Below, piece after piece: positions 159 through 61,487 of a DNA stretch of 64,000 nt. Both the position numbers and the translations under genes were made by a program. How positions within the stretch are numbered: position 1 is the stretch's first letter; each line of letters starts with the position of its first letter. Source of the DNA: a virus; IMG/VR virus record IMGVR_UViG_3300028859_000011, positions 1-64,000 of that record, one strand, 5' to 3'. Below the pieces are notes generated by a model, which was given only the letters and a program-made list of their open reading frames with translations, did no database searches and had not been told where the DNA came from.

Positions 159-800
159 ATGAAATATATAAAAACTTTTGAAGAAGGAATATCATCAGGA
201 AATGCATCAGGAAAAGCTGGAGTTGGATCAATTCCATTCGGAAGAGGTTATATGCAATCTGGCGGTAATAATGGAGCATCTGGTATTGTTTTTACAGCAG
301 TTGGTGAACCATCTTTTACTACATATAAAAGTATGAAGCATTCAAAAAAAGATTTAAAGGAAAAAAGAAGAAAACTTAAAATGTTTAAAAAATTCAAAGA
401 TAAAGATATAGTAACAGAAACAATAATACCAATTGACCAAATATCATGGAATTATGGAATTATAAATAATGATGAAAATATTGGAAAATATATAATTATG
501 AAAAAATTTGAAACTTATGCATTTAAATCAACTAATGGACACCGAAATGAATTAGATGAATTTATTCAAAATAATATAGCAAAAATAATATTATCAAGAA
601 AATCAGGAGTTGGAATTACTTATATGATAAAATATAAAAATATTCCGGAAAAATTAAAAGATTATTTTATTAATTGTGATTTTTTAAATGATGAAGAAAA
701 AAATTATATGTTAGTCATAAAAAGACATAATACTATTGAATTTATAGGAACAAAAGAAGAATGCGAAATTAAAATATCAGCAAAAAAATACAATTTATAA
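159..800 (+). CDS. Family A tagged protein (putative internal head protein)
   Basis: Starts MKYIKTFEE, ends AKKYNL. Gly/Ser-rich then Lys-rich N-half; C-half shares the KYxNIPxxLKxYF module with the 21425-22439 paralogues. Confidence 0.6.
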   Translation: MKYIKTFEEGISSGNASGKAGVGSIPFGRGYMQSGGNNGASGIVFTAVGEPSFTTYKSMKHSKKDLKEKRRKLKMFKKFKDKDIVTETIIPIDQISWNYGIINNDENIGKYIIMKKFETYAFKSTNGHRNELDEFIQNNIAKIILSRKSGVGITYMIKYKNIPEKLKDYFINCDFLNDEEKNYMLVIKRHNTIEFIGTKEECEIKISAKKYNL

Positions 801-801
801 T

Positions 802-1185
802 ATGAAAAAATTTGAAGAATTTATAAAAGAAGATGCATTTTCAACTATGGGCAATACAGAAGGAATGGGTGCTGTCGTAGCTGCTCAACCTGGAAGTATT
901 CCTGGAACTCAAGGAACAACTGGCTCTGGTGATATTGGGCAACCTCTTGCAACATATTCTAAGCCAGTAGTAAATATGAAAAGACATAAGAAAAATAAAA
1001 AGAAATTAAGAAAAGTAGAATCTTTTGATATGTTTATGATGGAAGAAAATGATATAGATAATTTCACTGCAAGATATTATGATAACTATGACGATGAAGA
1101 AGAACCAAGTTATGAAGTAAATCTTCAAGATATTGATGAAAATAATATTAAAAAAATTCAAATGTATGAAAAAGATAATAAATAA
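802..1185 (+). CDS. Family A leader protein, paralogue of the 159-800 N-half
   Basis: Starts MKKFEEFIKE (compare T4 IPII/IPIII leader MKTYQEFIAE); Gly-rich, then basic, then acidic blocks. Confidence 0.55.
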   Translation: MKKFEEFIKEDAFSTMGNTEGMGAVVAAQPGSIPGTQGTTGSGDIGQPLATYSKPVVNMKRHKKNKKKLRKVESFDMFMMEENDIDNFTARYYDNYDDEEEPSYEVNLQDIDENNIKKIQMYEKDNK

Positions 1186-1215
1186 ACTTTAATAAATTAA
1201 AGAATTAAAATTAAT

Positions 1216-1761
1216 ATGGATAGCATAAGATCGAAATATCAGAAATATGGAGTTAAAAATTTTTACGAATGGAATTTTGATCAATACAATAATCCTCATG
1301 AACCTATAATACAAAAATCTATAAAATTTGTAAATGATAATTGGAAAGTAAATTTTAATAAATCTTTAGATTTGGCTGCTGGTAACGGAGAAGTTACAAA
1401 AACACTAATCAATCTTGGTTATAATAATATTGATGCATGTGATGCATATTCATGTGAATATTATGAAAAAGAGAATAATAGAAAATGTCAAAAAATATCA
1501 TTTGATGATATTATAAAAGGAGCATTAGATAACAAAAAATATGATATTATAATTTGTAGTTTTGCCCTACATTTATTAGAAGATTCAAAATTACCAATAT
1601 TTTTATATAAATTAACACAAATCAGTAATCAATTATTAATATTATCTCCTCACAAAAGACCAGAAATAAAAGAAGAATGGGGTTGGAAACTTCAAAATGA
1701 AATAGTTATAGAAAAAGTTAGAACTAGGCTTTTTAATAATATTTTTTCTAAACAATTTTAA
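1216..1761 (+). CDS. Class I SAM-dependent methyltransferase
   Basis: Motif I SLDLAAGNG, IDACD and YDIIICSFALH. Confidence 0.8.
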   Translation: MDSIRSKYQKYGVKNFYEWNFDQYNNPHEPIIQKSIKFVNDNWKVNFNKSLDLAAGNGEVTKTLINLGYNNIDACDAYSCEYYEKENNRKCQKISFDDIIKGALDNKKYDIIICSFALHLLEDSKLPIFLYKLTQISNQLLILSPHKRPEIKEEWGWKLQNEIVIEKVRTRLFNNIFSKQF

Positions 1762-1801
1762 TAATAATTTATATAACATTATAAAATAAAATTATACGAT
1801 A

Positions 1802-2803
1802 ATGGACTATAACAAGGATTATTATAAAGAATTAGGATTAAATAAAGATTCATCAGAAGAAGAAATAAAAAAGAAATATAGAAAACTAGCTATAAAATAT
1901 CATCCAGATAAAAATCAAGGAAATAAAGAAAGCGAAGAAAAATTTAAATCTATATCGGAAGCTTATGAAATTTTATCTGACATTACCAAAAAACAAGAAT
2001 TTGATACACGTAGTCCAAATGGAAAGTCGTATTCACCATTTGGAGGATTTGAATCTAGTTTTTTTGGAGGAGGTTCAGATATTTTTAATCAATTTTTTGG
2101 AGGTAATAGTCCATTCGGTAATTTTTACAAAAGAGAAGAATTTTCTGAAAATTTAGATATAAACATTAATGTCAACATAGATTTTAAACAAATATATCAA
2201 AATGATAAAATAGCAATAAAATATAACAAATTTATTAATTGTGATGATTGTAATGGTACAGGATTCGATAAATCTGGACAATCATATGATTGTGATGTTT
2301 GTGATGGAACAGGATTAAATAACGGAAGAACTTGTGAATATTGTCAAGGTACTGGTAAAATTCACAGTGAAAAATGTAAAAAATGTAATGGTGAAAAAGT
2401 AATTTTAAAAGAAACTGAAGTTATTTTACAAAATATATCCGAAATAAGAGGAAATTCTAGAAATGTTCAATATGGCTATGGTAGTCAATCAAAATATTAC
2501 AGAGAAAAAGTAGGAAGTTTAATATTAAATATTAATAGCATAAATAATAGCAAATGTAGTATAATAAATAATTATGATTTAATTTTGACATTAGATATAC
2601 ATTATCAAGATGCAATAGATGGTAATAAAATAGATTATATACATGTTGATGATTCAAAATTAGAAATACAACTACCAAATAAAACTAAAAATGATGATAT
2701 AATTAAAATAAAAGATAAGGGTTTATTAAAGAATGATGGAAAAAGAGCAGATTTATATTTAAAAATAAATATAATAATTGACTATACTAAATTAAATATA
2801 TAA
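1802..2803 (+). CDS. dnaJ: DnaJ co-chaperone
   Basis: J-domain with HPD, G/F-rich linker, four CxxCxGxG-type zinc motifs and a C-terminal domain. Confidence 0.95.
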
Positions 2804-2823
2804 TTAAAAATAAATTAAATAAG

Positions 2824-3126
2824 ATGAAAAGAGAAGATTTTGATGTAGCAGCAGGATTAGTATATAGAATCGATAAAATTGAAAAAACAATTTTTGGATT
2901 ACAACAGTTAACCAAATGTGATAAATATAAAATAATAGGTTATCAATCACAAAGAATGATTAATATAGATGAAGTTGAACTAAATAAAGGAGATATATCA
3001 ACTGAGGTTTTCACTCAAGATATACTTGAATATTTTATAAATACATTAAACTTAGAATTAAATGAATTGAGGGAAAATTTTGATAAATTATTCAATAAAA
3101 ATGATGTTGAAGATATAAATATATAA
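2824..3126 (+). CDS. Hypothetical protein
   Basis: Clean ORF in the dnaJ-rpsU run. Confidence 0.6.
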   Translation: MKREDFDVAAGLVYRIDKIEKTIFGLQQLTKCDKYKIIGYQSQRMINIDEVELNKGDISTEVFTQDILEYFINTLNLELNELRENFDKLFNKNDVEDINI

Positions 3127-3149
3127 TTAAAAAATAATATAAATATAAA

Positions 3150-20786: not shown

Positions 20787-21095
20787 ATGAAATATTTAAA
20801 AGAATTTGAAAATGTTGTACCTGGTATAGATGATGAAAATGATTATTATTATGCTATACATATGGAAAAATCTATTGAAAAATTTAACTTAGCGTTAAAA
20901 AAAATTAATTTCTACGATGAATTTTATGAGTTTCTTGATGAAAAAGATATACCTATAAATAACGTAGTTTATATAATTTTTGAAAAAGATGATTTTTTTG
21001 TAGATGATAATATAGAGCCTTATATATCATATAAAAAATTAGCAGATGTTTATGTTTCTGATATCGAATGTGCTGCTGAAAAATTTAATTTATAA
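20787..21095 (+). CDS. Family A tagged protein
   Basis: MKYLKEFEN ... AEKFNL. Confidence 0.75.
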   Translation: MKYLKEFENVVPGIDDENDYYYAIHMEKSIEKFNLALKKINFYDEFYEFLDEKDIPINNVVYIIFEKDDFFVDDNIEPYISYKKLADVYVSDIECAAEKFNL

Positions 21096-21098
21096 TTT

Positions 21099-21428
21099 AT
21101 GAAATATTTAAGATTATTTGAAAATATAGCAGAAGAGCCGAATATAGATGAATTTTTAATTTTTGAGGTTAAAAATATTAATTCACCAATAAATTTAATT
21201 AAAATTACATCAATGCCAATTGATAGTAACGTACATCCAAATACTATTTTTATGGAAACAAGAGAATTAATGGGAGATTATGAAAGTGATATTTATTATA
21301 ATTATAAAGATAAATATTTTTTCTATGCAAGTGGAGTAAAATGTGATGTATTATTTAGAACATTTAATATCGATGAAGCATTTGATAGATTGAATTTAAT
21401 AAAAAATTCAAATAAATTTAACATATGA
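21099..21428 (+). CDS. Family A tagged protein
   Basis: MKYLRLFEN ... SNKFNI. Confidence 0.75.
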   Translation: MKYLRLFENIAEEPNIDEFLIFEVKNINSPINLIKITSMPIDSNVHPNTIFMETRELMGDYESDIYYNYKDKYFFYASGVKCDVLFRTFNIDEAFDRLNLIKNSNKFNI

Positions 21429-21787
21429 AATATTTAAAAGAATTCGAAAATAGTAATTTAAAATATGAAGTAGGTGATTACGTATTAATTAAAAGTACGA
21501 TATATGGTAAAAGTACGTATGGTAATAAATTACATGCTAAATCAGAAGAATATGTACATACTCACATTGGTAAAATTGTACATATAATAACTGTAAATAC
21601 GTCTGCTTATTTAAATGATATGGGTAATCTTAAAATAGAATATGTAGATGTACCAAAAAAAATTCAATGTTTTTTTGAGAACGGAATATATCAAACGCGT
21701 GAATATGAAGATATAGAAAGATTTGCGACTCCAGAAGAAATTAAAGAATATGAATTCAAAGTATTAGTAAATAAATTTAACATATGA
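21425..21787 (+). CDS. Family A tagged SH3/KOW-like protein
   Basis: MKYLKEFEN, YEVGDYVLIK ... VNKFNI. Confidence 0.75.
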   Translation: MKYLKEFENSNLKYEVGDYVLIKSTIYGKSTYGNKLHAKSEEYVHTHIGKIVHIITVNTSAYLNDMGNLKIEYVDVPKKIQCFFENGIYQTREYEDIERFATPEEIKEYEFKVLVNKFNI

Positions 21788-22125
21788 AATATTTAAAAAA
21801 ATTTGAAAATATAAATCATTATAACGTAGGTGATTACGTATTAGTTAATTATGTTACTAAATCTACAACATTATCTAAGTTGGCTAATTTTGTAAATTCA
21901 TCGATAGGAAAAATAATGTTTATTGATGATAAAAGTTTAATTGTTCAATATAATAATATTCCAGATAAAATAAAACATTTTTTTAGTGATAAAACAGTTG
22001 GTAATAATAATATAAAAAATTCTGTATTTTTTTGGGATAAAATTAATGCTATAAAAAGATTAGCAACTGAAGAAGAGATTGAAAAATATAAATTAGATAC
22101 TATTGCAAGTAAATTTAACATATGA
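21784..22125 (+). CDS. Family A tagged SH3/KOW-like protein
   Basis: MKYLKKFEN, YNVGDYVLVN ... ASKFNI. Confidence 0.75.
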   Translation: MKYLKKFENINHYNVGDYVLVNYVTKSTTLSKLANFVNSSIGKIMFIDDKSLIVQYNNIPDKIKHFFSDKTVGNNNIKNSVFFWDKINAIKRLATEEEIEKYKLDTIASKFNI

Positions 22126-22439
22126 AACATATAAAAACATTTGAAAACTCTAAAAACACGCCTGAAGTTGGAGATTATATTTTAGCTAATTATGATTCTA
22201 TTTTTGATTCATTAAAAGATTTAGTAGATTTTATGAATAATACAATAGGAGTAGTTGCTAATATAACATCTTTTAATCCATATGTTAAATATGATAATGT
22301 TCCTATTAATTTAAAAAAATATTTCAATAGAAATGGCAGTAAAGGTATAGTGGATGTATCACTTGATCATATTCTTTATTTTTCAAAATCAAAAGAAGAA
22401 ATAGAAATGAAATTAAATAAAAATAAATTTAACATATGA
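22122..22439 (+). CDS. Family A tagged SH3/KOW-like protein
   Basis: MKHIKTFEN, PEVGDYILAN ... KNKFNI. Confidence 0.75.
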   Translation: MKHIKTFENSKNTPEVGDYILANYDSIFDSLKDLVDFMNNTIGVVANITSFNPYVKYDNVPINLKKYFNRNGSKGIVDVSLDHILYFSKSKEEIEMKLNKNKFNI

Positions 22440-22780
22440 AGTACTTAAAATTATACGAAACAAAATTAATACCTAAATATAAAGTAGGTGATTATATTCA
22501 TTTAGATATGGAACCAGATTTTAGTTATGATGATTGTTTAGGTAAGATAGTTAAAATAGATAAAAATGGATTTTTAGTAGAACCTGATGAAAAAGAAAGA
22601 GATAATACTAATTTAGCGTTTTATATTAATCATTTTAATCCGTTTCCATACTCAGTAAAATTTTACAATAAAGGATATAATATAGAAGAACGTTTAATAG
22701 ATAGATATCTAAATAAAGAAGAAATAGAATATTTTAAATATTTATTAAAAAATAAAGACTTTAGAAAATTTAATATATGA
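22436..22780 (+). CDS. Family A tagged SH3/KOW-like protein
   Basis: MKYLKLYET, YKVGDYIHLD ... FRKFNI. Confidence 0.75.
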   Translation: MKYLKLYETKLIPKYKVGDYIHLDMEPDFSYDDCLGKIVKIDKNGFLVEPDEKERDNTNLAFYINHFNPFPYSVKFYNKGYNIEERLIDRYLNKEEIEYFKYLLKNKDFRKFNI

Positions 22781-23034
22781 GTAAATTAATTAATGATATA
22801 CATAAAATGTTAGGTTATATTAGAATAATTCAACAATATAATTTTTTCTCTCAATTAGGAAACGAAGAAGATATTGATTTTTTAAAAAATAAAGTTGATA
22901 ATCTTTGTTATATAGATGATACTGATATACTTATAAAAGATTTTGAATGGTGTGCAGATATGGTAAATTCATTATATAATGAGGTCGATCCTGAATTTAA
23001 AAAGAAATTATTGAAAGAAGAGCAACAAGACTAA
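22777..23034 (+). CDS. Hypothetical protein
   Basis: Last gene of the plus-strand array, followed by a hairpin at 23036-23058. Confidence 0.6.
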   Translation: MSKLINDIHKMLGYIRIIQQYNFFSQLGNEEDIDFLKNKVDNLCYIDDTDILIKDFEWCADMVNSLYNEVDPEFKKKLLKEEQQD

Positions 23035-23061
23035 AAAAGTCAGAATAAATCTGACTTTAAG

Positions 23062-23535
23062 TTATCTACCATATCTTTCACCAGGATATTTTTTATCAAT
23101 TTCTTTCCACATTTCAAAAGAACGTTTAAATAAATCAAATTTATTTTCAATAAAATCTTTAATTCCTTCATCAGATGTAATATCAATATTAAAATGATTA
23201 ATAATATTAGATGATAAATTTTCAAGAGTATTTTTTATACTCATAAAATAATAATTTTCAAGTCCGTTTAAATAATAATTTATAGTTTCAATTAATCTTT
23301 TAATATGTTCTGATTCACCATATCCATTTAATGTTTCACCCATAAGATTAATTTTTCTTTCATCATTTTTCTCTTTTTCTATATTATATGCTGGCTGTGT
23401 AATATTAGTTTTTTTTGATAATTTATCAAAATCATCATCTTTAATATTTTTTTTATGTTCACCTCCAATATTACCGCCGTATGGAAATTTAATATATTCT
23501 TTTATATATTCTCCATAGTCTACTAATTTTTTCAT
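23062..23535 (-). CDS. Hypothetical protein with Family A-like leader
   Basis: Starts MKKLVDYGEYIKE. Confidence 0.6.
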   Translation of the reverse strand: MKKLVDYGEYIKEYIKFPYGGNIGGEHKKNIKDDDFDKLSKKTNITQPAYNIEKEKNDERKINLMGETLNGYGESEHIKRLIETINYYLNGLENYYFMSIKNTLENLSSNIINHFNIDITSDEGIKDFIENKFDLFKRSFEMWKEIDKKYPGERYGR

Positions 23536-23550
23536 ATTTTTATTTTATTT

Positions 23551-23883
23551 TTATATATTAAATTTATTTGTTGATAATAATAACTTTAAATCATCAAATG
23601 TCATTATTGACCAATTATCTTTATTTCTCCATTCAGGGTTATTATATTTATCAAGTATTTCATCTAATCTACTATCTGCTTGCTCAATTGTAAAAAAGAA
23701 CGAAATATTATTAAGATTATTAATATCAAAATCATTAATATCAACTGACATCAAATGATCAGTATTGTTATATGAAATATTCATTAATATTGAATAATCT
23801 CCTTCAATTGGTTTATGTAAAACTAAGAAATATTTTTGTTTTTCTTCTTTCTTTTTAAATATATTAAATCTTTCTACTATCAT
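23551..23883 (-). CDS. Family A tagged protein
   Basis: MIVERFNIFK ... TNKFNI. Confidence 0.7.
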   Translation of the reverse strand: MIVERFNIFKKKEEKQKYFLVLHKPIEGDYSILMNISYNNTDHLMSVDINDFDINNLNNISFFFTIEQADSRLDEILDKYNNPEWRNKDNWSIMTFDDLKLLLSTNKFNI

Positions 23884-23885
23884 AA

Positions 23886-24317
23886 TTATAAATTAAATTT
23901 TTCTGCTGCTGTTATTAATGGTGGTTTATTATTTTCTATATTTAAAAATAAATACATTGCATATTGTATTGGTCCAGTATCTTGATATATTTTATGTTTT
24001 TTAATAAATTTTACTACTGTATCATATAATGATAAATCATCTTCTATTTTTTTCCATGCAGAAGCTAATGCATATTTTTTTATTTCTCTTTGCGTTTTTT
24101 TATTAATTCTATTATCATCAGTTTTCCATAAAAAAGGATATTGGTACATAAAAAATAGCATACTAAATTCATCTATAAAAGAATCTGGTACTTTAATCTC
24201 CTTAGATATTTCAATGCATAAATCATGACGTATTTTATTGTATGGTTGATTATAATCATATAAAAATTTATCAGTAACAGAATTAATTTTTTCAAATATT
24301 TTAAAATTAGTTATCAT
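23886..24317 (-). CDS. Family A tagged protein
   Basis: MITNFKIFEK ... AEKFNL. Confidence 0.7.
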   Translation of the reverse strand: MITNFKIFEKINSVTDKFLYDYNQPYNKIRHDLCIEISKEIKVPDSFIDEFSMLFFMYQYPFLWKTDDNRINKKTQREIKKYALASAWKKIEDDLSLYDTVVKFIKKHKIYQDTGPIQYAMYLFLNIENNKPPLITAAEKFNL

Positions 24318-24754
24318 ATGTTAAATTTGTTTGCTTCTCTTCTTAAATTTAGTTCTTTAATAATATCTTTTTGTTTTTCAGAAATATCACCATAAATAGT
24401 AAATGAAGAATTTCCATCAATTCTATATTCTATTTCAATATTGTTTTTTAATATTAGTGATAATACCACAAATTGATCTCTTTTATGCTGTAATGTACCC
24501 GTATATCCAATAGTACATTCATAAACTTGATCAATCACTCCTTTTATATAATCTTTATCAATTGGTAAAAATTTAGATTTACTATTATCATAACCATACC
24601 TAATATTGAATTTAACTAACGTATAAGGTTTTAATAAATTCATAATAAATTTTCTAATTTTAGTAAGACTATTATTATAATAAATCATTAAATCATTTAA
24701 TACTAATGTTGTTTCATCATCAACACTTTCAAATATTTTAAATTCTGTTATCAT
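24314..24754 (-). CDS. Family A tagged protein
   Basis: MITEFKIFES ... ANKFNI; ATTATATATAAC motif just upstream. Confidence 0.7.
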   Translation of the reverse strand: MITEFKIFESVDDETTLVLNDLMIYYNNSLTKIRKFIMNLLKPYTLVKFNIRYGYDNSKSKFLPIDKDYIKGVIDQVYECTIGYTGTLQHKRDQFVVLSLILKNNIEIEYRIDGNSSFTIYGDISEKQKDIIKELNLRREANKFNI

Positions 24755-38053: not shown

Positions 38054-39943
38054 ATGCCAAGCTCTAGTAAAATGATGATGATTAATACAAATGTCTTAAT
38101 GGAATGGACATTTGATAGTGAAAATAATATAACTGAAAATTACAAAGTTATAACTAATTTGAATGAAAATAAAAAAAGAAGTTTTCTTTCTACTACAAAT
38201 AATAATTCCATAAATAATAATTTAGTTTTATTGGATACTGTTCTAAAAAAATATACTCCTATTGATGTAGTAAAATATAATTTTTTACAATATCAAGATT
38301 ATAATACAGCACCAATACCATATGATACTGTAAAATTATATTTACCAACGAATTATAATTTCGTAATGAATGAATATGTTGGATTATATGTTAAAATTTA
38401 TACATATGATTATTATAATGAAAATGTATATGAATTATCTAATATATTTTTTGATTCTACAGTTAATACAACATCAGGATTAACTCAATTATCTATACCA
38501 TTTTTATATAATGAACAAGAATGGGGTAAATATTATGAATTTCAAATTCCATCTATTGATTATATATCTAATCAAAGAATAATATCATTAACAGAAAATG
38601 TAGTATTAAATAATACAATCAATGATAATTTTACGATAGGAGTAGGATTAAGTCAAACATCTCCAATATTTGTTGAATTTCAATATTTAACTTCAAAAGA
38701 AATTATACTTGGTACAACATATTATTATTCATCAGAGTCTTACCGTACATCATTATCTAAAAGTGCTGATTATAATACATTAGCAGTCAATATATCAGAA
38801 TCAACAGAAGGAGATTTCTTTGAAATAAACGGTACATATGGAAATTCAACTCAAAATTTGGATAATTTCATAAGAGAAATGGAGAATAAAGGACGTAGAA
38901 TGAGAATTGAGTACGATATTTATCTACTTGAAGAGAATATACAGACAAATATGCAAACCGTTGTTGTAACAGGAAATGGCGCAAATGATGATTTTACAAA
39001 AACTATATTATATAGACCTATTTTAACATTTTCAAACACAACAGCAGCAATAAACGTTGTAATGAGAGTTATTGATTTAGTGGATATGAGTACAATAGAA
39101 AGAACATCAACTCTTGGGTTAACTACTAATATACAAAAATATGGTAAAAAATTAATTAGTTTAAATATACAAAATTTAAATAAACTTAAAATTTATAATG
39201 CGAAACCAGATGAAATTATTTTGGGCTCAGATTATTTATCAGGAAATATAACTACAGAAATTGTAAAAGTAAATTCTCCTCAATTGATAGAAGTTGGTAA
39301 ATTAATAGTAAATAGTTCATCTAATAGTTCATCTACCGCATTAACTAATAATGATTATAAAACTATGGGATTATTAAATATTGTAATTACTCCATTTGAT
39401 AATATCATACAATTTAGATTGGCATCTCTTCAATCAACAAATTCTACTACTAATCAATTGGTTATATATGATTTATCTACAATATTGAATAATGCAGAAT
39501 TAGTATTAGTATTTAAATCTGATTCAGAAACAATAGAAAAATCTATATATCAAGAAGCTACAAATGATTATATAAACGGAATTGTTAATTTTAAAATTTT
39601 AGAAAATGATTTACCTGTATTAAACTCAATTTACAATAAAGGATTCACTAATTTTTATTTAACATTAGTGTCAAATAATCAGTCATCAAATAGTACAACT
39701 CAAGTTATTGGACTTGATAAAGTACGAACATTATTATATTCTGGTACATTTACATTATTTGAAAATGTCACATTTGTTGATGATAGTACAACATATATTT
39801 CAGACTCAAGTAGTTCTGTTCCTATATCATCAGGTAGTGCATCTACTAATACAACAACTACAACAGCATCAATATGGCCAATGGCAGGAAGAACAGTTAT
39901 TATTTATACCAAATATAAAAATACATCATCAACATCAAATTAA
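38054..39943 (+). CDS. Probable virion structural protein
   Basis: 629 aa, Asn/Thr-rich beta composition; TTTTATATATAG motif upstream. Confidence 0.55.
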   Translation: MPSSSKMMMINTNVLMEWTFDSENNITENYKVITNLNENKKRSFLSTTNNNSINNNLVLLDTVLKKYTPIDVVKYNFLQYQDYNTAPIPYDTVKLYLPTNYNFVMNEYVGLYVKIYTYDYYNENVYELSNIFFDSTVNTTSGLTQLSIPFLYNEQEWGKYYEFQIPSIDYISNQRIISLTENVVLNNTINDNFTIGVGLSQTSPIFVEFQYLTSKEIILGTTYYYSSESYRTSLSKSADYNTLAVNISESTEGDFFEINGTYGNSTQNLDNFIREMENKGRRMRIEYDIYLLEENIQTNMQTVVVTGNGANDDFTKTILYRPILTFSNTTAAINVVMRVIDLVDMSTIERTSTLGLTTNIQKYGKKLISLNIQNLNKLKIYNAKPDEIILGSDYLSGNITTEIVKVNSPQLIEVGKLIVNSSSNSSSTALTNNDYKTMGLLNIVITPFDNIIQFRLASLQSTNSTTNQLVIYDLSTILNNAELVLVFKSDSETIEKSIYQEATNDYINGIVNFKILENDLPVLNSIYNKGFTNFYLTLVSNNQSSNSTTQVIGLDKVRTLLYSGTFTLFENVTFVDDSTTYISDSSSSVPISSGSASTNTTTTTASIWPMAGRTVIIYTKYKNTSSTSN

Positions 39944-39953
39944 AATAATTAAA

Positions 39954-41192
39954 ATGACTACTACAACTACTACAATATCAAATACTAAAAATGATTTACT
40001 TAACGCATTAAATATATCATCAGGTGAAACTTTAAGTTATAATTCATCAATTGAGAATATTATAAATACTCAAGGCGGAACTGTTTTATATTCGTACGAT
40101 AATATAATTATAGCATCTGAAATTACAGATTCATTTTATAATGAATTGATTAAAAATCCAAACATAGAGTATATAGATTCACTACCTTTAAAAAAATATG
40201 GTGATGTTAATTATAATTTAATTAACCAAGTAGTGATTAATAATAGTAATACATCGAATTTAAGTTCAACTTCAGGTTCAAATTCAGGAACAACTGTTGC
40301 TTTCGTAACAGGAATAAATGTGACAGGATATACAAATGATATTACAAATTCTATAAATTTGTTAAATACTCTTACTACGACACTTCAAGATGGAATATCA
40401 GGTAAAACTAGTTTATCATCAAATATAAATATATCACCTACCATAACAAATGATATTTTTGCATTAAGTGCAGAAACCAATAATACATTCAATTATCTTA
40501 TTAATGCAACTGGTACTGTACCAATTAAATATGAGATTATAACGCCAAGTAACTATATTGGAACAATAGGACTCAATTTAAATAATATAAGTGGAATCAC
40601 ATCAAAAACTGGAACATATAATTTTACATATAGTGCAATAAATTATTACGGTTCTGCATCAAAAGATTTAGTTTTGACTGTTATTGAATATGTTAAAATA
40701 ACCAATACAAATCTTATTATTAATAGTAATTTTGGTACAAATATTACATATCAAATATTATCAACTGGAAATCCAAATTCATATTATTCAACATCTTTAC
40801 CATCTGGATTAACTATGAACAATTCAACTGGAGTAATTAGTGGAATTTGTGTTATAACTGGAAGTACTAATGTTAATATAACTGCTTCTGGAATAACAGG
40901 AATGGATTCTAAAATATTAACAATTAATGTAGGATATTATCCAATCATTACTAGTATTGGTACTATTTCAGGTAAGACATATTCAGCGTTTAATTATACT
41001 ATAACATCAACTGATAGTGGTGCTACATATAAAATTGTAGGTAACTTACCTAGTGGATTAAATTTTAATAATAATATAATAAGTGGATTACCAAATAATC
41101 CTGGAATAGTAAACGTATCAATAACAGCAAGTAATGCGTTTGGATATTCCACTAAAAATTTATCAATTATTATATCAAATATGAATATATAA
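39954..41192 (+). CDS. Putative-Ig (He_PIG-type) repeat protein with N-terminal I9-like domain
   Basis: Start reassigned to MTTTTTTIS; repeats such as SLPSGLTMNNSTGVISG and NLPSGLNFNNNIISGLP. Confidence 0.7.
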   Translation: MTTTTTTISNTKNDLLNALNISSGETLSYNSSIENIINTQGGTVLYSYDNIIIASEITDSFYNELIKNPNIEYIDSLPLKKYGDVNYNLINQVVINNSNTSNLSSTSGSNSGTTVAFVTGINVTGYTNDITNSINLLNTLTTTLQDGISGKTSLSSNINISPTITNDIFALSAETNNTFNYLINATGTVPIKYEIITPSNYIGTIGLNLNNISGITSKTGTYNFTYSAINYYGSASKDLVLTVIEYVKITNTNLIINSNFGTNITYQILSTGNPNSYYSTSLPSGLTMNNSTGVISGICVITGSTNVNITASGITGMDSKILTINVGYYPIITSIGTISGKTYSAFNYTITSTDSGATYKIVGNLPSGLNFNNNIISGLPNNPGIVNVSITASNAFGYSTKNLSIIISNMNI

Positions 41193-41471: not shown

Positions 41472-41654
41472 ATTAACTATTTAAAAACATTTGAAAAATA
41501 TGATAATTCTTATATTTATGATATATTAACTGAAAGATTTGCAAATTATATTAAAAATGTTTTAAAATTTGAAGAAGAAACTCCAAACTATAGTAATAAT
41601 TTTTATAAAATAAAAAGTAATAAATTAAAATATGAGAATAAGTTCACAAAATAA
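41472..41654 (+). pseudogene. Family A-type ORF with ATT in place of ATG
   Basis: ATT AAC TAT TTA AAA ACA TTT GAA (xNYLKTFE), open for 60 codons; not in the ORF track. Confidence 0.45.
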
Positions 41655-42279
41655 TCAATTTTTATTCCAGCTTCCAACCGACTTTATATCAGATGAAGTT
41701 AATGAAAGAATGAAAAATTATTTATATAAAAATTGGATACCTTATCTTACCCCAATGGATTATTTAAATAGTTCTATAAAAGAATGTGTATTTCCAAGTA
41801 TTACGTATGAAGGATCAGAGCAAATAATTAAATATGGTAAAAAAATTGAATATAAGCCAGCTACAAATATTTATGATACATATAATAATACATTAGATAT
41901 AACATTTAGGAGTGTAGATTCTCATTCTAATTATTTTATGATGCAGCAAATTTTCAATGAATATTATAATAATACAAGAAAATATTCATTAACTAATATT
42001 AATTTATTTATTTTAGATAAAGATGGAGATTTTTTATATTCAATTGTATTTAGAACAGCATTACTTAAGTCATTATCAGAAGTTAGACTTATGTATCAAT
42101 CAATTGATGTATCAGAACAAACTTTTACTGTAACGTTTAAATTTAATTTTATGGATGTATATTGGAAATTAACAGATAATCCAGATTATAAAGAAGATAA
42201 TATATTTTATTCTAAAACTTGGGATCATACTAATGAAATTTTACCCATGAAAAGATCACAAAATAATTATAATTTATAA
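41632..42279 (+). CDS. T4 gp19/gp54-like tail tube or tube-initiator protein
   Basis: IKECVFPSI...TLDITFRSVD...ILDKDG...LKSLSEVRL...TFTVTFKFN pattern of the tube family. Confidence 0.6.
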   Translation: MRISSQNNQFLFQLPTDFISDEVNERMKNYLYKNWIPYLTPMDYLNSSIKECVFPSITYEGSEQIIKYGKKIEYKPATNIYDTYNNTLDITFRSVDSHSNYFMMQQIFNEYYNNTRKYSLTNINLFILDKDGDFLYSIVFRTALLKSLSEVRLMYQSIDVSEQTFTVTFKFNFMDVYWKLTDNPDYKEDNIFYSKTWDHTNEILPMKRSQNNYNL

Positions 42280-44583: not shown

Positions 44584-45054
44584 TTAATATCTTCTAATAA
44601 TTGTCTTTTTTTTTGGTTCTTCCATTACAGGAGGATAATAAGGAGTAAATGATTTATCATCGCTATATTCATCTGTAAATATTTTATCAGTATCTACATT
44701 AGTATTATATTTTTTAGGCTCAAATATTGAATCATTACTATCACCTTTTTCTTCATCTCTTTTTAGTCTTTGATTTATAAATTCTCTAACATAATTATGA
44801 GCAGATTTTAAATCATCTTTCTTTTTATTTCTTAATCTCACACTTTTTCCATCTTTAGTTTTTTTGAAAATTTTACAAATGAAAAATATTCCCTTTTTCT
44901 GTATTCTAGCAAAATAATATGGTTCTACATTTCCTGATTTATATTTTATAATTCCTCCAAATACAGTAGGATTATATTTTGCTTTGCCACTAGTAAATAA
45001 TTTATCATCTATAATATTATCTTTCCAGTTTTCAAATGTTTTAATTTTTTTCAT
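44584..45054 (-). CDS. Family A leader protein
   Basis: Starts MKKIKTFENW; TTTTATATATATAT directly upstream. Confidence 0.65.
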   Translation of the reverse strand: MKKIKTFENWKDNIIDDKLFTSGKAKYNPTVFGGIIKYKSGNVEPYYFARIQKKGIFFICKIFKKTKDGKSVRLRNKKKDDLKSAHNYVREFINQRLKRDEEKGDSNDSIFEPKKYNTNVDTDKIFTDEYSDDKSFTPYYPPVMEEPKKKTIIRRY

Positions 45055-51235: not shown

Positions 51236-51622
51236 TTAATATTCATCTAAAAATTCAATCTCATCTTCATCATCTACATTTATTAACTTTATAACATTTG
51301 TATAACCAGTAAATTCTTTTAGTTCATCTATCATATCATAAAAATCAGATTCATCCAAACTATCTAATAAATCAGCTAATTCATATTTAGCAGGTTGATA
51401 ATCATCTTCATCAATATAATCATCTAAACTTTTTTCTCCTTGAGTGTCTAATATTTCTAATATCTGATCAATTGCATCATGTTTATATTCCCAAAAAGAT
51501 TCATGTTCATCATCAACTCTAACTTCCCATTTATCTTCGTTTTCATTATCGTTTTCATTTTCTTCGTCATTCAGAATATTTTCATTAATATATTCAAACT
51601 CATCAAATTTTTTAAGCCCCAT
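51236..51622 (-). CDS. Acidic protein with Family A-like leader
   Basis: Start reassigned to MGLKKFDEFEY; very Asp/Glu-rich. Confidence 0.6.
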   Translation of the reverse strand: MGLKKFDEFEYINENILNDEENENDNENEDKWEVRVDDEHESFWEYKHDAIDQILEILDTQGEKSLDDYIDEDDYQPAKYELADLLDSLDESDFYDMIDELKEFTGYTNVIKLINVDDEDEIEFLDEY

Positions 51623-51740: not shown

Positions 51741-51767
51741 GGGCATCGGGAGATGCCCTTTTATTTT
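51741..51767 (+). terminator. GC-rich terminator with an alternative pairing partner
   Basis: GGGCATC-GGGA-GATGCCC then TTTTATTTT; ATGGGCA can instead pair with TGCCCAT at 51712-51718. Confidence 0.75.
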
Positions 51768-52138
51768 GGTTCGTCAAATATAACATTCCAATTATTTAAT
51801 TTATGCCAACCACTAGGCATTAATATTTCTAATTCATTTGATAATAAATTATCAAATGTAACATATTCTTTTACTTTACCGTTTTTTACTTTGTCAGAAA
51901 TTTTAAATTTATCATTTAATTTGGTTCTTAAAATAACCATTTTAGATTCTCCTCCTTTATATTTAGCATAATATTTAGCATAATTTATATCATTAGTAAA
52001 AGATATTGATGACTTTTCATCACCTGTATTATTAGTTTTCATATATCCATCATTTTGTATATGTAATGACTGCCCTCTACCTGTACCATGATAAATATAA
52101 TTATCATCATTATCAAATTTATTAAAAGTTGTAATCAT
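51761..52138 (-). CDS. ADP-ribosyltransferase-fold-like protein with Family A-like leader
   Basis: MITTFNKFD; YIYHGT ... ISFTNDINYAKYYA. Confidence 0.55.
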   Translation of the reverse strand: MITTFNKFDNDDNYIYHGTGRGQSLHIQNDGYMKTNNTGDEKSSISFTNDINYAKYYAKYKGGESKMVILRTKLNDKFKISDKVKNGKVKEYVTFDNLLSNELEILMPSGWHKLNNWNVIFDEPK

Positions 52139-52162: not shown

Positions 52163-52468
52163 TTAATCATATTTATCTATCAAAGGTTTAATTAATAAAT
52201 ATGTTAAGTAACATATAAAACTTCCAATAAATCCATATATTGGAATTATTAATAAACTCATAATAGTTAGTTCATGATAATATATCATTAATAAAGTTTT
52301 AATTATAATACCCCAATAGAATCCGCTGCACTGACAGCACTTTAATAACTTACCTAATGATTGATTCATTTCTTGTATTTTATCTCTTATATGCTTAAAT
52401 ATATAAGATTGGGTTGTTATTAATGTTGCTCCAATTGTTGCTAATATAAATAATAAAAAGGTTAACAT
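52163..52468 (-). CDS. DUF1360-like membrane protein
   Basis: TM helices flanking LGKLLKCCQCSGFYWG. Confidence 0.6.
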   Translation of the reverse strand: MLTFLLFILATIGATLITTQSYIFKHIRDKIQEMNQSLGKLLKCCQCSGFYWGIIIKTLLMIYYHELTIMSLLIIPIYGFIGSFICYLTYLLIKPLIDKYD

Positions 52469-53595
52469 TATTCTTTATTTTTTTTATCAAGTTCAGATAT
52501 TATTTCATCTAATGTCATTCCTTTTATATAATAATTATATACATCATATCTTTCATAACCAAATGATGAGTCATAATGTTTATAAAGTTCATTCATTAGT
52601 CTATTATACTTACTAATTTCTTCTAAATTTTTAAACTCACCAACTTCATAATAAATTGATTCAATTACTATTGTTTCTTTTGGATTAAATATCGCATACG
52701 TATTGTGTTTTTTTTCTTTTGCGACATAACCAACAAATCCTAATTTTTCAATTGTATTAGATACAGAATCATTTTCATAATATCTCCAAGTATCATCTAA
52801 TTTTATTTTTTTTGGTTTTTTATTCCATGATTTTTTATATTTAGAAGCATATTCTTTCATCATATTTTCTTTTGCGATGTTATATAATTCTACTCCTTTT
52901 TCATATTGTTCATCTGTTATTTCAATATTTAAATATGTTTTGTGATATTTTTTATCAAGAAATATCCCAGTTAAATGATCAGATATTCTATAAATATCAG
53001 TTCCTTTAAATATACTTTTTATATAATTTCTAAAATCTTCAAAATATTTACGATATTCATATCCAAATTTATTATCTCCGTATGATATTGATTCTGCACC
53101 ATTTAAATAATATGAAAAAGTTTTTTTATCAATTGTATAAACATAATCGTCATCAACATCAACAACTATTAATTTATCATATTTATAATATGGATCATCT
53201 ACGTTATCTCCAATTTTAGCATTTATTATATTATCAACTGGTTCTATAATATCATCTCCTTTTAATAATTCTAAAATATCTTGTTTTTTATAATCCGTAG
53301 GAAAACAAAAATTGCTCATATAACAAGTAATTTTATCTGGTAATGCATCATCTAATTGTTTTAAATGCTCTTCTATATTTGCATCAAATATTTTACCATT
53401 TAATTTACATGTATAAATAACTGGAGATTGATCTAACTCATTATCACTTGATTTTTCACTTGCGTAGTCATATGCAAATTTACTATTATCTGAAAAAAAT
53501 GTTATATTATTTTTAAATTTAGAAAATAAATATGGTGAGCCATGATATAATGTAAAATTTGACATCATTTTTTCAAATGTTTTTAAATATTTCAT
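52468..53595 (-). CDS. Family A leader protein with ADP-ribosyltransferase-like (ART-PolyVal type) motifs
   Basis: MKYLKTFEK; LYHGSPYLFSKF...FFSDNSKFAYDYA; distal GFVGYV...YAIFNP. Confidence 0.6.
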   Translation of the reverse strand: MKYLKTFEKMMSNFTLYHGSPYLFSKFKNNITFFSDNSKFAYDYASEKSSDNELDQSPVIYTCKLNGKIFDANIEEHLKQLDDALPDKITCYMSNFCFPTDYKKQDILELLKGDDIIEPVDNIINAKIGDNVDDPYYKYDKLIVVDVDDDYVYTIDKKTFSYYLNGAESISYGDNKFGYEYRKYFEDFRNYIKSIFKGTDIYRISDHLTGIFLDKKYHKTYLNIEITDEQYEKGVELYNIAKENMMKEYASKYKKSWNKKPKKIKLDDTWRYYENDSVSNTIEKLGFVGYVAKEKKHNTYAIFNPKETIVIESIYYEVGEFKNLEEISKYNRLMNELYKHYDSSFGYERYDVYNYYIKGMTLDEIISELDKKNKE

Positions 53596-53682: not shown

Positions 53683-54189
53683 ATGAAATCATTTGAAACT
53701 ATATTTAACAATTGGATAAGTAGTAAAGTTGAATTTCAACTTAAAATAATAGATAACATTGCATCTGAAACGGGAGTTGATCCTGAAAAATGGTTTATTG
53801 AAAATTTTTTACGTAGGCATATCGGAGATTATACTGAAGATGATTTTTTAAACGTTCTTCTACAAGAATATATAGGTTATTTATCTAATGAATTTGACAA
53901 AATTGTAGGGGTTTATTTAGAAAGTGATAAACATAATATGTATGGAGAACCAATATATGACATATATATAACATTAGAATATGATTTTGATAATAATAAT
54001 ATTTTTATTAATGAAGAGTACGGAGAAAGAGTTGATATTGAAAAAGTCATACAATCAGTATCTCTTAATAATAGATCTGTGTTGATGAAAAATAAATTAT
54101 TTTCATATATCATTAATAAAACAAATTTAAATATTTTTTCTAAAAAAGATATAAGAGCATTAAAATTGAAACAATTAAATGAAATATAA
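53683..54189 (+). CDS. Hypothetical protein with Family B tag
   Basis: TATCTTTG box upstream; ends IRALKLKQLNEI. Confidence 0.65.
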   Translation: MKSFETIFNNWISSKVEFQLKIIDNIASETGVDPEKWFIENFLRRHIGDYTEDDFLNVLLQEYIGYLSNEFDKIVGVYLESDKHNMYGEPIYDIYITLEYDFDNNNIFINEEYGERVDIEKVIQSVSLNNRSVLMKNKLFSYIINKTNLNIFSKKDIRALKLKQLNEI

Positions 54190-54391
54190 AATTAATGATA
54201 TTGTATTGCTTAATAATGATATTAAATTAAAAATAATAGAAATTGGTGAAATTTCATTGTATTATGTAGTAGTATATTTAACAGAATCACGTCGCACTTA
54301 TATTGATTCTGAATATTTAGATTATAATTCATATCTAATAGATATTAAATATTTAAGAAAAGAAAAATTAAATAAATTATATGAAATATAA
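54179..54391 (+). CDS. SH3/KOW-like small protein with Family B tag
   Basis: MKYKINDIV ... LRKEKLNKLYEI. Confidence 0.7.
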   Translation: MKYKINDIVLLNNDIKLKIIEIGEISLYYVVVYLTESRRTYIDSEYLDYNSYLIDIKYLRKEKLNKLYEI

Positions 54392-54617
54392 AGTAGGAGA
54401 TATTGTAGTTGGAAACATTGTAGTTGGAAACATTTTTAAAATCGAAATTATAAGTATTTTGAATAATGAATATGAATATTGTCTAACATGCAGGTCAAAT
54501 AAAAAAATTACGAAATGGTGCACGATATCAATTGATAATTATACTAAATTAGATGATCAATATCTTAGAAAAGAAAAATTAAAGAAATTATATGATACTT
54601 CAGCAGTGGTTAAATAG
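54381..54617 (+). CDS. SH3/KOW-like small protein with Family B tag
   Basis: MKYKVGDIVVGNIVVGN (15 bp duplication) ... LRKEKLKKL. Confidence 0.7.
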   Translation: MKYKVGDIVVGNIVVGNIFKIEIISILNNEYEYCLTCRSNKKITKWCTISIDNYTKLDDQYLRKEKLKKLYDTSAVVK

Positions 54618-56623: not shown

Positions 56624-56877
56624 ATTCAATTAAAACAGTAAAATCAAGATATAGTATAACTACAATATCATCAAGTTATTATAATACACTTTCATCAAGT
56701 TATAATACAAATGACATTATTTCTGGTTCAACTGGATTATTAGAGCAAGGTTATATATTTGTTCCTTATATAATGTCTACAACAACATCAATTATTACTG
56801 AATCAAGAGAATGGAAGATACAGAGATTAAGAGAAAAACGGATAGAAAAACTTAATAAATTAGGTTGGAATGAATAA
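56620..56877 (+). CDS. Family B tagged peptide carrying a major-capsid-like motif
   Basis: LLEQGYIFVPYI resembles the gp23-family C-terminal [DE]xG[YL][IVF][YF][AC]PY[VI]P motif; ends KRIEKLNKL. Confidence 0.5.
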   Translation: MNSIKTVKSRYSITTISSSYYNTLSSSYNTNDIISGSTGLLEQGYIFVPYIMSTTTSIITESREWKIQRLREKRIEKLNKLGWNE

Positions 56878-57145
56878 TAACGGTTGGAATCAAGGTGATG
56901 AAATAGTATGTATAAATAATAGTAGTTATCCAAATATATTAACTATTGGAAGATCATATAAAATTATTGGAATTCATTGTAATACTAATATTAATAAATA
57001 TCAAGTTATTATTCAATCAAATAGTAATAGTTATACATTAACTGTATTTTGTGATTTGTTTTTATCACTCAATGATTTTAATAAAAAACAAAGACTTGAT
57101 AAGTTAAAAAAACTTAATAAATTATGCAATATAAATATTCAATAG
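56870..57145 (+). CDS. SH3-like paralogue with Family B tag
   Basis: QGDEIVCINN...LTIGRSYKI...QRLDKLKKL. Confidence 0.7.
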   Translation: MNNNGWNQGDEIVCINNSSYPNILTIGRSYKIIGIHCNTNINKYQVIIQSNSNSYTLTVFCDLFLSLNDFNKKQRLDKLKKLNKLCNINIQ

Positions 57146-57381
57146 ATGATAACGTTATCTGCATTTTAAATGATAATGGATATGAAAGATATTTAACAAT
57201 TGGAAAAACATATAAAGTCTTATATGTTTATATTGGAAAAATAACTAAATTAGAACATATATATGTTAACTCTGATATAAAGCATCAAGATATTAAACCA
57301 TTAAGTAGTCAATTTTTAACTATTAATAAATTTAAAAAATTTCAAAGAAAAGAAAAACTAATTAGATTAAATCTATTATAA
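57124..57381 (+). CDS. SH3-like paralogue with Family B tag
   Basis: DDNVICILND...LTIGKTYKV...QRKEKLIRL. Confidence 0.7.
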   Translation: MQYKYSIDDNVICILNDNGYERYLTIGKTYKVLYVYIGKITKLEHIYVNSDIKHQDIKPLSSQFLTINKFKKFQRKEKLIRLNLL

Positions 57382-58435: not shown

Positions 58436-58436
58436 T

Positions 58437-59477: not shown

Positions 59478-59717
59478 AAATAACAATATTATGAAAAAAT
59501 GGACAGATTTATTGGTAGGTGATCCAATATATATTTTAAAATATGTTAAAAAAATATAACTAGTTTTATTGAAACAAAATGTGAAGGATTTGATAACATA
59601 GGTTATGCAATTGTTATTTATTATTATGTTGAGAGATTAGCAAATGATAAAGATTTTGAAGGTAAAGATTCCGTTACAAAAAATTTAAATAAAAATATAA
59701 AAAAGTGTAAATAAAAT

Positions 59718-59724
59718 AAACTTT
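59718..59724 (+). promoter_or_regulatory. Putative middle-type promoter motif AAACTTT, representative copy
   Basis: Also at about 1184, 9904, 31972, 42279, 42586, 45071 and 50391, and on minus near 38005 and 48817, generally followed by a TATTAT-like hexamer. Confidence 0.5.
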
Positions 59725-59760
59725 TTTAAAATATTATACTATTAAATATAATTAAACAAA

Positions 59761-60097
59761 TAGTTCTTTGATGTCATGATAAAATGGTTGTTAGTTAAAA
59801 ACTTAACTAACGTAAAATCATAAAAGTAATAAGTTTGATTAAAAATCAAACTGAAACTTTTAATCTTTATACATATCAATAATATTGATTACAGTAAACA
59901 TAAAACGATTAATACACTTTTAAATACATCTTAACAACGGACTATAATAAGTCTTAAAAATGGTTGTTCGTTATGTAGTTTAAATAATTAAAAGCGACTA
60001 CGATTTCTTTAAACTATAGAGAATAGTGTGTTCGGATAAAGAATTTCATCAAACGAAATTCAAACGTCACAGCAAGTACAAATTTGTATAAGTTTAA
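59761..60097 (+). ncRNA. Candidate ~340 nt structured non-coding RNA
   Basis: ORF-free; at least seven short stems; AAACTTT-type promoter motif at 59718; boxA-like AGTTCTTTGA at its 5' end. Confidence 0.5.
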
Positions 60098-60415
60098 GTT
60101 GACGGTACTGGATTATATTTTCCATTATATAAAGCAGATATAGATAGTTCTAAAACAGAAGATAATAATAACTATTACTTTTGCGATATTGATGCTGTTA
60201 TAGATGAAATGAATGAATATGAAAAAGATTTAAATGATTTAAAATCTAAATTTAATAAATTATTTGATACTATAATTGATATAAAAAATAAATAATTTGA
60301 TTTGATGTATATTTTTTGTTCAATTAAATATGATGTTCATTGTCAATGAAGTTAATATTATTTTGAACAAAATATTTTTTATATCAAGATATTATTGTAT
60401 ATTTGCAAAAAAATT

Positions 60416-60616
60416 ATGAAAGATAAAAAATCAGAAGATATATATTCTAATTGGGTTAAAGATTCAGGAATAAAAGATTTGACTGGTAATCAATCAAATT
60501 TTGTTAAAATGATTATTTTAAATAGAAAATATATTTGTGAAATAGGAAGCTTTAATAAAATATTTATTAGCATTTATAAATATTTGAAGAATAATCGTGA
60601 AAAATTAGAAGATTGA
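60416..60616 (+). CDS. Hypothetical protein
   Basis: First ATG after the TATATTTG box at 60398. Confidence 0.5.
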   Translation: MKDKKSEDIYSNWVKDSGIKDLTGNQSNFVKMIILNRKYICEIGSFNKIFISIYKYLKNNREKLED

Positions 60617-60619
60617 AAT

Positions 60620-60871
60620 ATGAAATCTAAAAATTATAAAATAGGTGAAAAAATAGTTTGTATAGATAATTTCACATTATATTCACCAGATACAAAATTA
60701 AGTAATATAAAATTATTAGAAATAGGTAAAGTGTATACTGTTAGTAGTGGTTATTACACTAATGAAGAATTGGGACTTAATGAAATATCTCACCATTTAT
60801 TCAATAATAATAGATTTATAAAAATTTCAGAATTAAGAAAATATAAATTAGAAAAATTAAATGAAATATAA
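60620..60871 (+). CDS. SH3-like paralogue with Family B tag
   Basis: IGEKIVCIDN...LEIGKVYTV...LRKYKLEKL. Confidence 0.7.
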   Translation: MKSKNYKIGEKIVCIDNFTLYSPDTKLSNIKLLEIGKVYTVSSGYYTNEELGLNEISHHLFNNNRFIKISELRKYKLEKLNEI

Positions 60872-61124
60872 AGACTATAAATATGGTACTAAAATGATTT
60901 GCATTGATAATTATTCACGATATTCTAGTATAGAATTAGGCGGTTCTATCTCATTATTAAAAATGGGAGAAACCTATACTTTTAATTCTATTAATAGTTA
61001 TGGTGAAATTAATTTTAAGGAATTTCCTAATGCACTTTTTAGAAAACAAAGATTTATAGAATATTCAAAATTTAGAAAATATAAATTAGAAAAGTTAAAT
61101 AATATTAAAAATCCATCTGTTTAA
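60861..61124 (+). CDS. SH3-like paralogue with Family B tag
   Basis: GTKMICIDN...MGETYTF...FRKYKLEKL. Confidence 0.7.
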   Translation: MKYKDYKYGTKMICIDNYSRYSSIELGGSISLLKMGETYTFNSINSYGEINFKEFPNALFRKQRFIEYSKFRKYKLEKLNNIKNPSV

Positions 61125-61138
61125 GATGGATTTTTATT

Positions 61139-61150
61139 TTTATATATACC
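61139..61150 (+). promoter_or_regulatory. Putative late promoter motif (T/A)(T/A)ATATATA, representative copy
   Basis: Also near 6346(-), 7726(-), 9923(-), 12351(-), 12441, 17951, 24761(-), 35511, 38021, 45061(-), 50378(-), 51640(-), 51653 and 53618(-), each a short distance before structural or Family A genes. Confidence 0.6.
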
Positions 61151-61172
61151 AATAAATAAAAATTTATTTATA

Positions 61173-61487
61173 ATGAAAATATATAGTTTTGATGAATATT
61201 ATCACATGAAATTACAAGCAGATATTTATTATACTAATATGATGAAAGTTTTTTATGATTATATAACTACTAATGATGAGTTTATAAAAAAACATGGTCC
61301 TATTTCTATAACAAGAGTTGAAGATATATCAAAAAATAATTTTAGATCAGGAGGATATATTATAAATTATAGAGCTAAAGATTATTCCGTTAGAAAAATT
61401 AATATAACTGATGAAGAATATAATGATATGATTAAATATATGAAAGATCCAGAATTATATGACTCAGTAAAAAAATTTAATTTATAA
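61173..61487 (+). CDS. Family A tagged protein
   Basis: MKIYSFDEY ... VKKFNL; late-type motif upstream. Confidence 0.7.
   Translation: MKIYSFDEYYHMKLQADIYYTNMMKVFYDYITTNDEFIKKHGPISITRVEDISKNNFRSGGYIINYRAKDYSVRKINITDEEYNDMIKYMKDPELYDSVKKFNL

Follow-up and report, generated by a model that had tools for sequence, protein, structure and literature searches.

Why should so many proteins of one phage, unlike one another in most of their length, open with nearly the same few residues? The question is raised by a 64,000-nucleotide stretch of viral DNA (the window), bases 1–64000 of the 125,546-bp IMG/VR record IMGVR_UViG_3300028859_000011. A preliminary description of the window had counted about 18 open reading frames (ORFs) with shared N-terminal leaders and likened them to the peptides that direct internal proteins into the head of phage T4. 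The count held up at the coordinates listed, with 17 of the 92 window ORFs carrying a leader, together with one relic that begins with ATT. We found that the leader is a portable peptide, neither the signature of a protein family nor an RNA element. The explanation that we favor, and to which we give an about even chance, is that they serve as portable propeptides, akin to the T4 capsid-targeting sequence, and load proteins into the capsid.

The source record was estimated by CheckV to be 18% complete, which implies a genome of about 700 kb. The closest DNA matches (LR745206.1, LR756502.1 and LR756501.1) are published 'huge phages' of 634–735 kb; the phage is an AT-rich relative of that group (window G+C, 20–26%). 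A near-complete relative, G006 (675,678 bp, 98% complete, 27% G+C), has 35 of the 210 proteins of the 125,546-bp contig in common with it, at 25–63% identity.

Clear leaders of three kinds (MK[YH][LI][KR]x[FY]E, MITxF[KN]x[FY][ED] and MKKFEEFIKE) were found on 13 window ORFs, and weaker variants on four (23062–23535, 23551–23883, 51236–51622 and the ORF at 61173). All of the ORFs listed earlier are real, although some minus-strand genes had been given by one end only and span 44584–45054, 51236–51622, 51761–52138 and 52468–53595. The proposed ATT-start member at 41472 is present as a peptide but has no ATG; this frame is probably a decayed leader gene. It was also considered as the frameshifted start of ORF 41632–42279, which is ruled out by the G006 orthologue beginning at the same methionine. 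Leader genes make up 34 of the 210 ORFs in the whole contig, or about one in six, and the family therefore exceeds the earlier count. The 17 genes beyond the window include four with MKKY[NK][QE]FINE, and the clusters there lie at 78010–80917, 85571–95145 and 112391.

A degenerate DNA pattern for the leader gave six matches in the window versus 0.00 expected from 100 dinucleotide shuffles, and the peptide core K[YHF][LI]KxFE occurred ten times at N-termini and not once internally among 36,388 contig residues. Chance is excluded as the origin of the motif. The exact leader DNA recurred in more than 116 IMG/VR stretches of 17–36% G+C, each time at an ORF start, and a looser pattern had 9–16 matches in LR745206.1, LR756502.1, G005 and G006 and none in reversed controls. 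Roughly 10–15% of all proteins carry the leader.

What follows the leader varies widely. Trimmed of their first 14 residues, the 34 contig leader proteins fell into 27 BLAST clusters; one of the links recovered was between the C-terminal half of ORF 159–800 and the family of 21784–22125. The Pfam domains found behind contig leaders (ankyrin repeats in two genes, NT5C and HD) all start past the leader, at residue 14 for NT5C, 23 for Ank and 50 for HD. Two contig AAA ATPases have weak leaders only, and their G006 relative starts without one. The reverse arrangement, one body behind several leaders, was seen in a 30-sequence alignment of close relatives of the 51761–52138 protein, where an invariant body follows N-termini that alternate between MITxF.., M[KR][YH]IKLFEE and a longer ..FI..I.E.LNE.

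Structure predictions place the leader outside the folded body. AlphaFold modeled the 51761–52138 protein with a pLDDT of 85.3 (residues 1–11 below 50) and the 21784–22125 protein with a mean of 83.9 (residues 1–9 below 50). The structured bodies start at residues 12–18 in the two models, and leaders are 8–12 residues long; in both of these unrelated, confident models the leader is predicted to be flexible or disordered and to lie outside the fold. Top Foldseek matches of the first protein were Tpt1/KptA, DarT and toxin ADP-ribosyltransferase (ART) chains, and a tblastn search of 50,697 phage records with it found no match. The 52468–53595 protein, which contains LYHGS, was considered as an ART relative of this protein and was not supported (hhalign probability, 0.6%). 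For the SH3-like body of the second protein, Foldseek returned weak eL21-like and MazF-like matches only, with no functional lead.

In 21 leaders of G006 the choice among synonymous codons is that of the genome as a whole (Lys2, AAA 18/AAG 3; Phe7, TTT 12/TTC 6; four different Leu4 codons), which places selection at the level of the peptide. Relatives likewise interchange leader codons (TAT/TAC, TTA/CTA/CTT/ATT, TTT/TTC and GAA/GAG).

A further shared element, absent from the preliminary description, lies at the opposite end of the proteins. A tail [FY]N[LIM], mostly in the form xKFN[LI], terminates 11 of the 17 leader proteins in the window and 20 of the 34 in the contig, versus 1 of 176 other proteins (p = 6e-18). 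G006 has leaders and no K[FY]N[LI] tails, and the tail is therefore specific to the window phage's clade, in which it may act as a second tag on about 60% of leader proteins. An SH3-like family marked at both ends comprised 2,504 representative clusters in a profile search, and among the best 150 matches of its profile 119 open with a leader and 144 finish in K[YF]N[LIV]. The two termini were also considered as a single structural unit, which was ruled out because both models show a disordered leader, with the tail coming after a C-terminal helix. Separately, the sole non-leader protein with a tail-like end is 41632–42279, which ends NYNL, probably by coincidence; the orthologue in G006 has a different end.

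The likeness between these leaders and the T4 capsid-targeting sequence (CTS) is real and in register. We confirmed from the T4 record (NC_000866) that IPII and IPIII open with MKTYQEFIAE and that IPI opens with MKTFKEF, as published for these highly basic internal proteins (PMC8442874). In the T4 leader, residues 4 and 7 are needed for targeting and residues 8 and 10 for processing (PMC9026906), and internal proteins of the T-even phages differ widely, having nothing but the leader in common (PMC3012670). MKKFEEFIKE from the window and MKKYKEFINE from the contig agree with T4 in register at 6–7 of 10 positions. In the main leader type L/I stands at 4, F/Y at 7 and E at 8, the leader of ORF 802–1185 reads MKKF(4)EEF(7)IKE, and in MITxFKIFE the register is shifted by one residue. 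The window thus has a short N-terminal leader with the T4 targeting residues at 4 and 7, and, as with the T4 CTS, the same leader occurs on unrelated bodies (27 clusters; ART-fold, SH3-like, Ank, NT5C and HD). An L/I-x-E leader end is present at 802 (I-K-E), at 23886 and 24314 (I-F-E) and in the contig MKKYxxFINE genes (I-N-E), while the main type ends x-F-E without it.

Head genes of the T4 type were found in relatives. A Gp23-family capsid protein is encoded by G006, LR745206.1 and LR756502.1 (E = 1e-25 to 4e-28) and by the leader-bearing, near-complete G007 and G008 (482 and 476 kb), and G006 also has a Portal_T4 match (E = 5e-68). In G006 the portal gene lies at 548039–549634 and the capsid gene at 543309–545015. 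Directly upstream of the G006 capsid gene lies a gene for an 801-aa protein (545023–547428, minus strand), the first 250 residues of which match head-maturation proteases (phrog_207 at 1e-26; Peptidase_S80 above cut-off; Peptidase_S77 weak and below cut-off). We regard it as a putative head protease of the S80/S77 class, the class that cuts after Glu. Its middle part holds 14 tandem 14-residue repeats, SEY[LI]AEN.D..I.Y, with 11 [LI]AE sites; beyond these scaffold repeats (residues 255–470), in which [LI]AE is the T4 cleavage motif, lie an acidic linker rich in Gln and Glu and then a C-terminal domain. The end of the capsid propeptide is conserved (SEYAEMHQMNE|NVGYSTLGN), and [LI]AE, YAE and MNE occur in the clade's scaffold repeats and capsid propeptide.

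One window gene links the leader to the capsid protein itself. Residues 13–53 of ORF 802–1185 are 55% identical to residues 71–114 of the G006 capsid protein (E = 8e-12), a segment just past the propeptide end, so the leader of this ORF ends where the capsid propeptide ends. The G006 head module also contains two leader genes; one, of 85 aa, adjoins the gene for the protease, and the other, of 155 aa, lies immediately downstream of that for the capsid protein. Peptidase_S77 and Gp23 searches returned nothing usable in the window's own record or in the closest K[FY]N-tail fragments (G001–G004), which is explained by these being fragments without the head module. As a separate observation, ORF 802–1185 has a Lys-rich patch, and in ORF 159–800 the leader is similarly followed by a Gly/Ser-rich stretch and a Lys-rich patch.

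The preliminary description called the cargo set late-expressed and placed TATATATA directly upstream of several leader genes. That association holds for operon heads only; most other leader genes are operon-internal. Within 50 nt upstream, TTATATAT[AT] was present at 7 of 13 leader operon heads versus 14 of 89 other heads (p = 0.005; curated heads, contig), and a host-type TA..TTTG box at 0 of 13 versus 16 of 89. The form TTTATATAT(A), at −15 to −44, also precedes the tail fibre gene and several large unannotated genes, and never occurs together with a TAnnTTTG box. The latter, which we take to be a Bacteroidota-type −7 promoter box, precedes the ligase gene and runs of small genes. These boxes suggest an early class of genes and a host that is probably a member of the Bacteroidota. 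In the window, TATCTTTG or TAnnTTTG boxes precede the ligase gene and non-leader operons by 14–45 nt (62316, 53647, 6798, 4777 and others). With a broad leader regular expression, the promoter association was significant neither across all genes of G000 and G006 nor among the operon heads of G006 (p = 0.23–0.30); only the curated operon-head test in the window's contig reached significance. A gp55-like late sigma factor is hinted at by a 125-aa protein with a Sigma70_r2 match below cut-off (E = 4e-4). The motifs at leader genes fit co-expression with structural genes, and these genes may be expressed late.

From these observations we infer docking, cleavage, packaging, injection and their timing as follows. 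A leader of 8–12 residues, in which two hydrophobic or aromatic residues (4 and 7, or 5 and 8) are followed by Glu, would dock its protein on the scaffold core while the prohead assembles. The head-maturation protease would then cut after the leader Glu, and the mature protein would remain in the head and enter the host with the DNA. A more ambitious version, which we put forward tentatively and consider rather doubtful, is a two-ended address in T4-headed huge phages, in which an N-terminal leader imitating one cleavable scaffold repeat and a K[FY]N[LI]-COOH end would together send roughly a hundred different proteins into the capsid (among them enzymes, ankyrin proteins, modifiers of the ART fold and capsid-arm mimics). 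Among the papers searched, none links megaphages or huge phages with capsid-targeting sequences.

Several known systems offer comparisons. With the T4 CTS the phage shares a 10–19-residue MK- leader, aromatic or hydrophobic residues at 4 and 7 with Glu at the putative cut, one leader on unrelated and fast-changing mature proteins, and a gp20/gp21/gp23-family head, here in relatives. In contrast, T4 has three internal proteins whereas the window has 17 leader genes in 64 kb, with three leader types, the commonest ending F-E without Leu/Ile at P3, and with mostly acidic bodies that include enzymes and repeat proteins; the second C-terminal tag and the protease–scaffold fusion are further differences. 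T4 Alt is also alike, as an ADP-ribosyltransferase-type enzyme with a head-targeting propeptide (putative here), and its processing at both termini (PMC9026906) recalls the two-ended tags. The 51761–52138 protein differs in being a 125-aa minimal domain with a fold nearest Tpt1/KptA and no K[FY]N[LI] tail. The phiKZ-like giants (SPN3US and phiKZ) have large heads with dozens of proteins and an S80-family protease, the family matched by the G006 enzyme, that cuts propeptides after Glu. However, their propeptides are mostly 80–160 residues long with no shared short motif (PMC5694885) and are cut at S/A/G-x-E, unlike the 8–12-residue leaders here. The capsid protein of phiKZ-like phages was not found by the Gp23 search. 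Encapsulin cargo-loading peptides are short, usually C-terminal, sit on unrelated cargo and bind the inside of an HK97-fold shell, with no protease step and no DNA; they are a possible analogue of the K[FY]N[LI]-COOH tail.

A number of points weigh against capsid loading. In the commonest leader, MKYLKxFE, P3 is variable, whereas the T4 gp21 rule asks for Leu/Ile there and the phiKZ rule for Ser/Ala/Gly. Leader-protein bodies are mostly acidic (median pI 5.7 versus 7.7 for other proteins) and, with basic bodies (pI 8 or more) in 7 of the 17 window members, do not match the small, highly basic character of T4 internal proteins. A tag on so large a share of the proteins, including ordinary enzymes such as NT5C and HD, would be much to package. 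T4 gene 61.1 (54 aa, hypothetical, NC_000866 18966–19130) opens with MKTFKEFIKE, which comes close to a perfect CTS, adjoins the primase gene and has no known head role, and we know of no report that its product is packaged. The upstream motif in G006 also precedes dUTPase and sensor kinase genes, which weakens the label of a late promoter, and, counted by itself, the motif is no more frequent in the window than chance would give (13 versus 7.8 expected). Finally, the phage is uncultured, its record is 18% complete and has no head module, and the head genes are those of relatives that share 35 of 210 proteins.

Some of these points would sit more comfortably with a different reader of the same tags, for which the leader and K[FY]N[LI] tail would be docking sites: a chaperone or unfoldase, a degradation system timing their removal, or another phage compartment. 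Such tags are short and flexible and lie at the termini, the bodies lack a basic character, the window has ClpB-like and DnaJ-like ORFs, and cytoplasmic sorting or turnover is easier to reconcile with tagged NT5C and HD enzymes than packaging is. Nevertheless, we consider such a reader unlikely: none was identified, and the T4 register, the Glu at 8–10, the T4-type protease and scaffold of relatives, the capsid-arm fusion in 802–1185 and the leader genes inside the G006 head module point to the head.

A somewhat smaller probability attaches to the ends having no address function, either because they were inherited from a fast-diverging paralogue superfamily or because the conserved ends serve as junctions at which recombination shuffles gene cassettes. 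Such a history would be expected to give the many leader genes in tandem arrays, where stop and start codons overlap as ATGA and the junction DNA is nearly identical (20787–24754), the true paralogy of some leader genes and the more than 1,200 clusters of the SH3-like two-ended family. It accounts poorly for leaders in front of Pfam-distinct domains (NT5C, Ank and HD) that are widespread without them, for orthologues of one body that exchange leader types, and for G006 leaders that occur without a tail and outside arrays; the free variation of leader codons, moreover, means that the DNA is not the conserved thing. The codons count equally against an mRNA-level element at the start of selected genes, whether a translation-initiation enhancer or a regulatory RNA site, since synonymous codon use in leaders equals the genome average. 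The leader is AAA- and A/U-rich right after the start codon, but the whole genome is 22% G+C and such richness is not special, and the three leader types encode the same hydrophobic-pair-plus-Glu pattern in different nucleotides, which makes an RNA element very improbable.

Table 1. Leader genes of the window and contig, with two chaperone-like window genes. Coordinates are window positions unless marked as contig.
Feature	Coordinates	Strand	Leader	Body and remarks	Tail
213-aa ORF	159..800	+	MKYIKTFEE	Gly/Ser-rich stretch, Lys-rich patch, SH3-like domain	KKYNL
127-aa ORF	802..1185	+	MKKFEEFIKE	copy of N-terminal arm of mature major capsid protein	none
102-aa ORF	20787..21095	+	MKYLKEFEN		EKFNL
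109-aa ORF	21099..21428	+	MKYLRLFEN		NKFNI
120-aa ORF	21425..21787	+	MKYLKEFEN	SH3-like	NKFNI
113-aa ORF	21784..22125	+	MKYLKKFEN	SH3-like; AlphaFold example	SKFNI
105-aa ORF	22122..22439	+	MKHIKTFEN		NKFNI
114-aa ORF	22436..22780	+	MKYLKLYET		RKFNI
157-aa ORF	23062..23535	-	MKKLVDYGEYIKEY (weak)	doubtful member	none
110-aa ORF	23551..23883	-	MIVERFNIFKKK (variant)		NKFNI
143-aa ORF	23886..24317	-	MITNFKIFEK	I-F-E fits L/I-x-E	EKFNL
146-aa ORF, operon head	24314..24754	-	MITEFKIFES	TTATATATA 15 nt upstream	NKFNI
60-codon frame	41472..41654	+	INYLKTFEKYD	ATT AAC replaces ATG AAA; probably decayed	ENKFTK-stop
156-aa ORF	44584..45054	-	MKKIKTFENW	TTTATATATA 18 nt upstream	none
128-aa ORF	51236..51622	-	MGLKKFDEFEY (variant)	acidic	none
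125-aa ORF	51761..52138	-	MITTFNKFDND	predicted ADP-ribosyltransferase fold; invariant YHGT, SxSFT and EY motifs	none
375-aa ORF	52468..53595	-	MKYLKTFEKM	no family assignment	none
104-aa ORF	61173..61487	+	MKIYSFDEYY (weak)	TTTATATATA 34 nt upstream	KKFNL
Ankyrin-repeat proteins	contig 79836-80303, 89245-89829		present		K/I-FN[IL]
NT5C deoxyribonucleotidase	contig 80300-80917		present	leader only	none
HD-domain protein	contig 112391-113173		present	leader only	none
ClpB-like AAA+ protein	32607-35141			window gene	
DnaJ-like ORF	1802-2803			likeness in N-terminus only	

Further recognizable window genes encode a Mre11/Rad50-type fusion, an NAD-dependent ligase and an S1-domain protein, and the tail fibre carries an S74 chaperone domain. 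At 38054–41192, two ORFs in different frames (629 aa, and 494 aa with He_PIG Ig domains) share about 230 nt; the first has a single 747-aa orthologue in G006, and the pair could be a frameshifted or split structural gene. A 368-aa protein (35551–36657) with a partial match to glycoside hydrolase family 15 and TPR repeats stands behind a TTTATATATA motif. About 30–40 small proteins (60–100 aa; window 3329–61124 and contig 64–125 kb) have a basic C-terminal helix, RKxKLxK[LI]N, many in tandem runs (for example, 54179–54617, 56870–57381 and 60620–61124); this tag is distinct from the K[FY]N[LI] tail and occurs on almost no leader protein.

If the leader works as it does in T4, the injected protein set of uncultured 0.5–0.7-Mb phages would be predictable from sequence alone, and no studied phage would come near it in size or variety. 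The ART-fold enzyme, the HD and NT5C hydrolases and the ankyrin proteins would then be candidate counter-defence and host-takeover proteins, and foreign proteins could be fitted with the short tags in attempts to load them into T4-type capsids. The protease–scaffold fusion, with its regular cut sites, may offer a simple model for how the core is cleared in huge heads.

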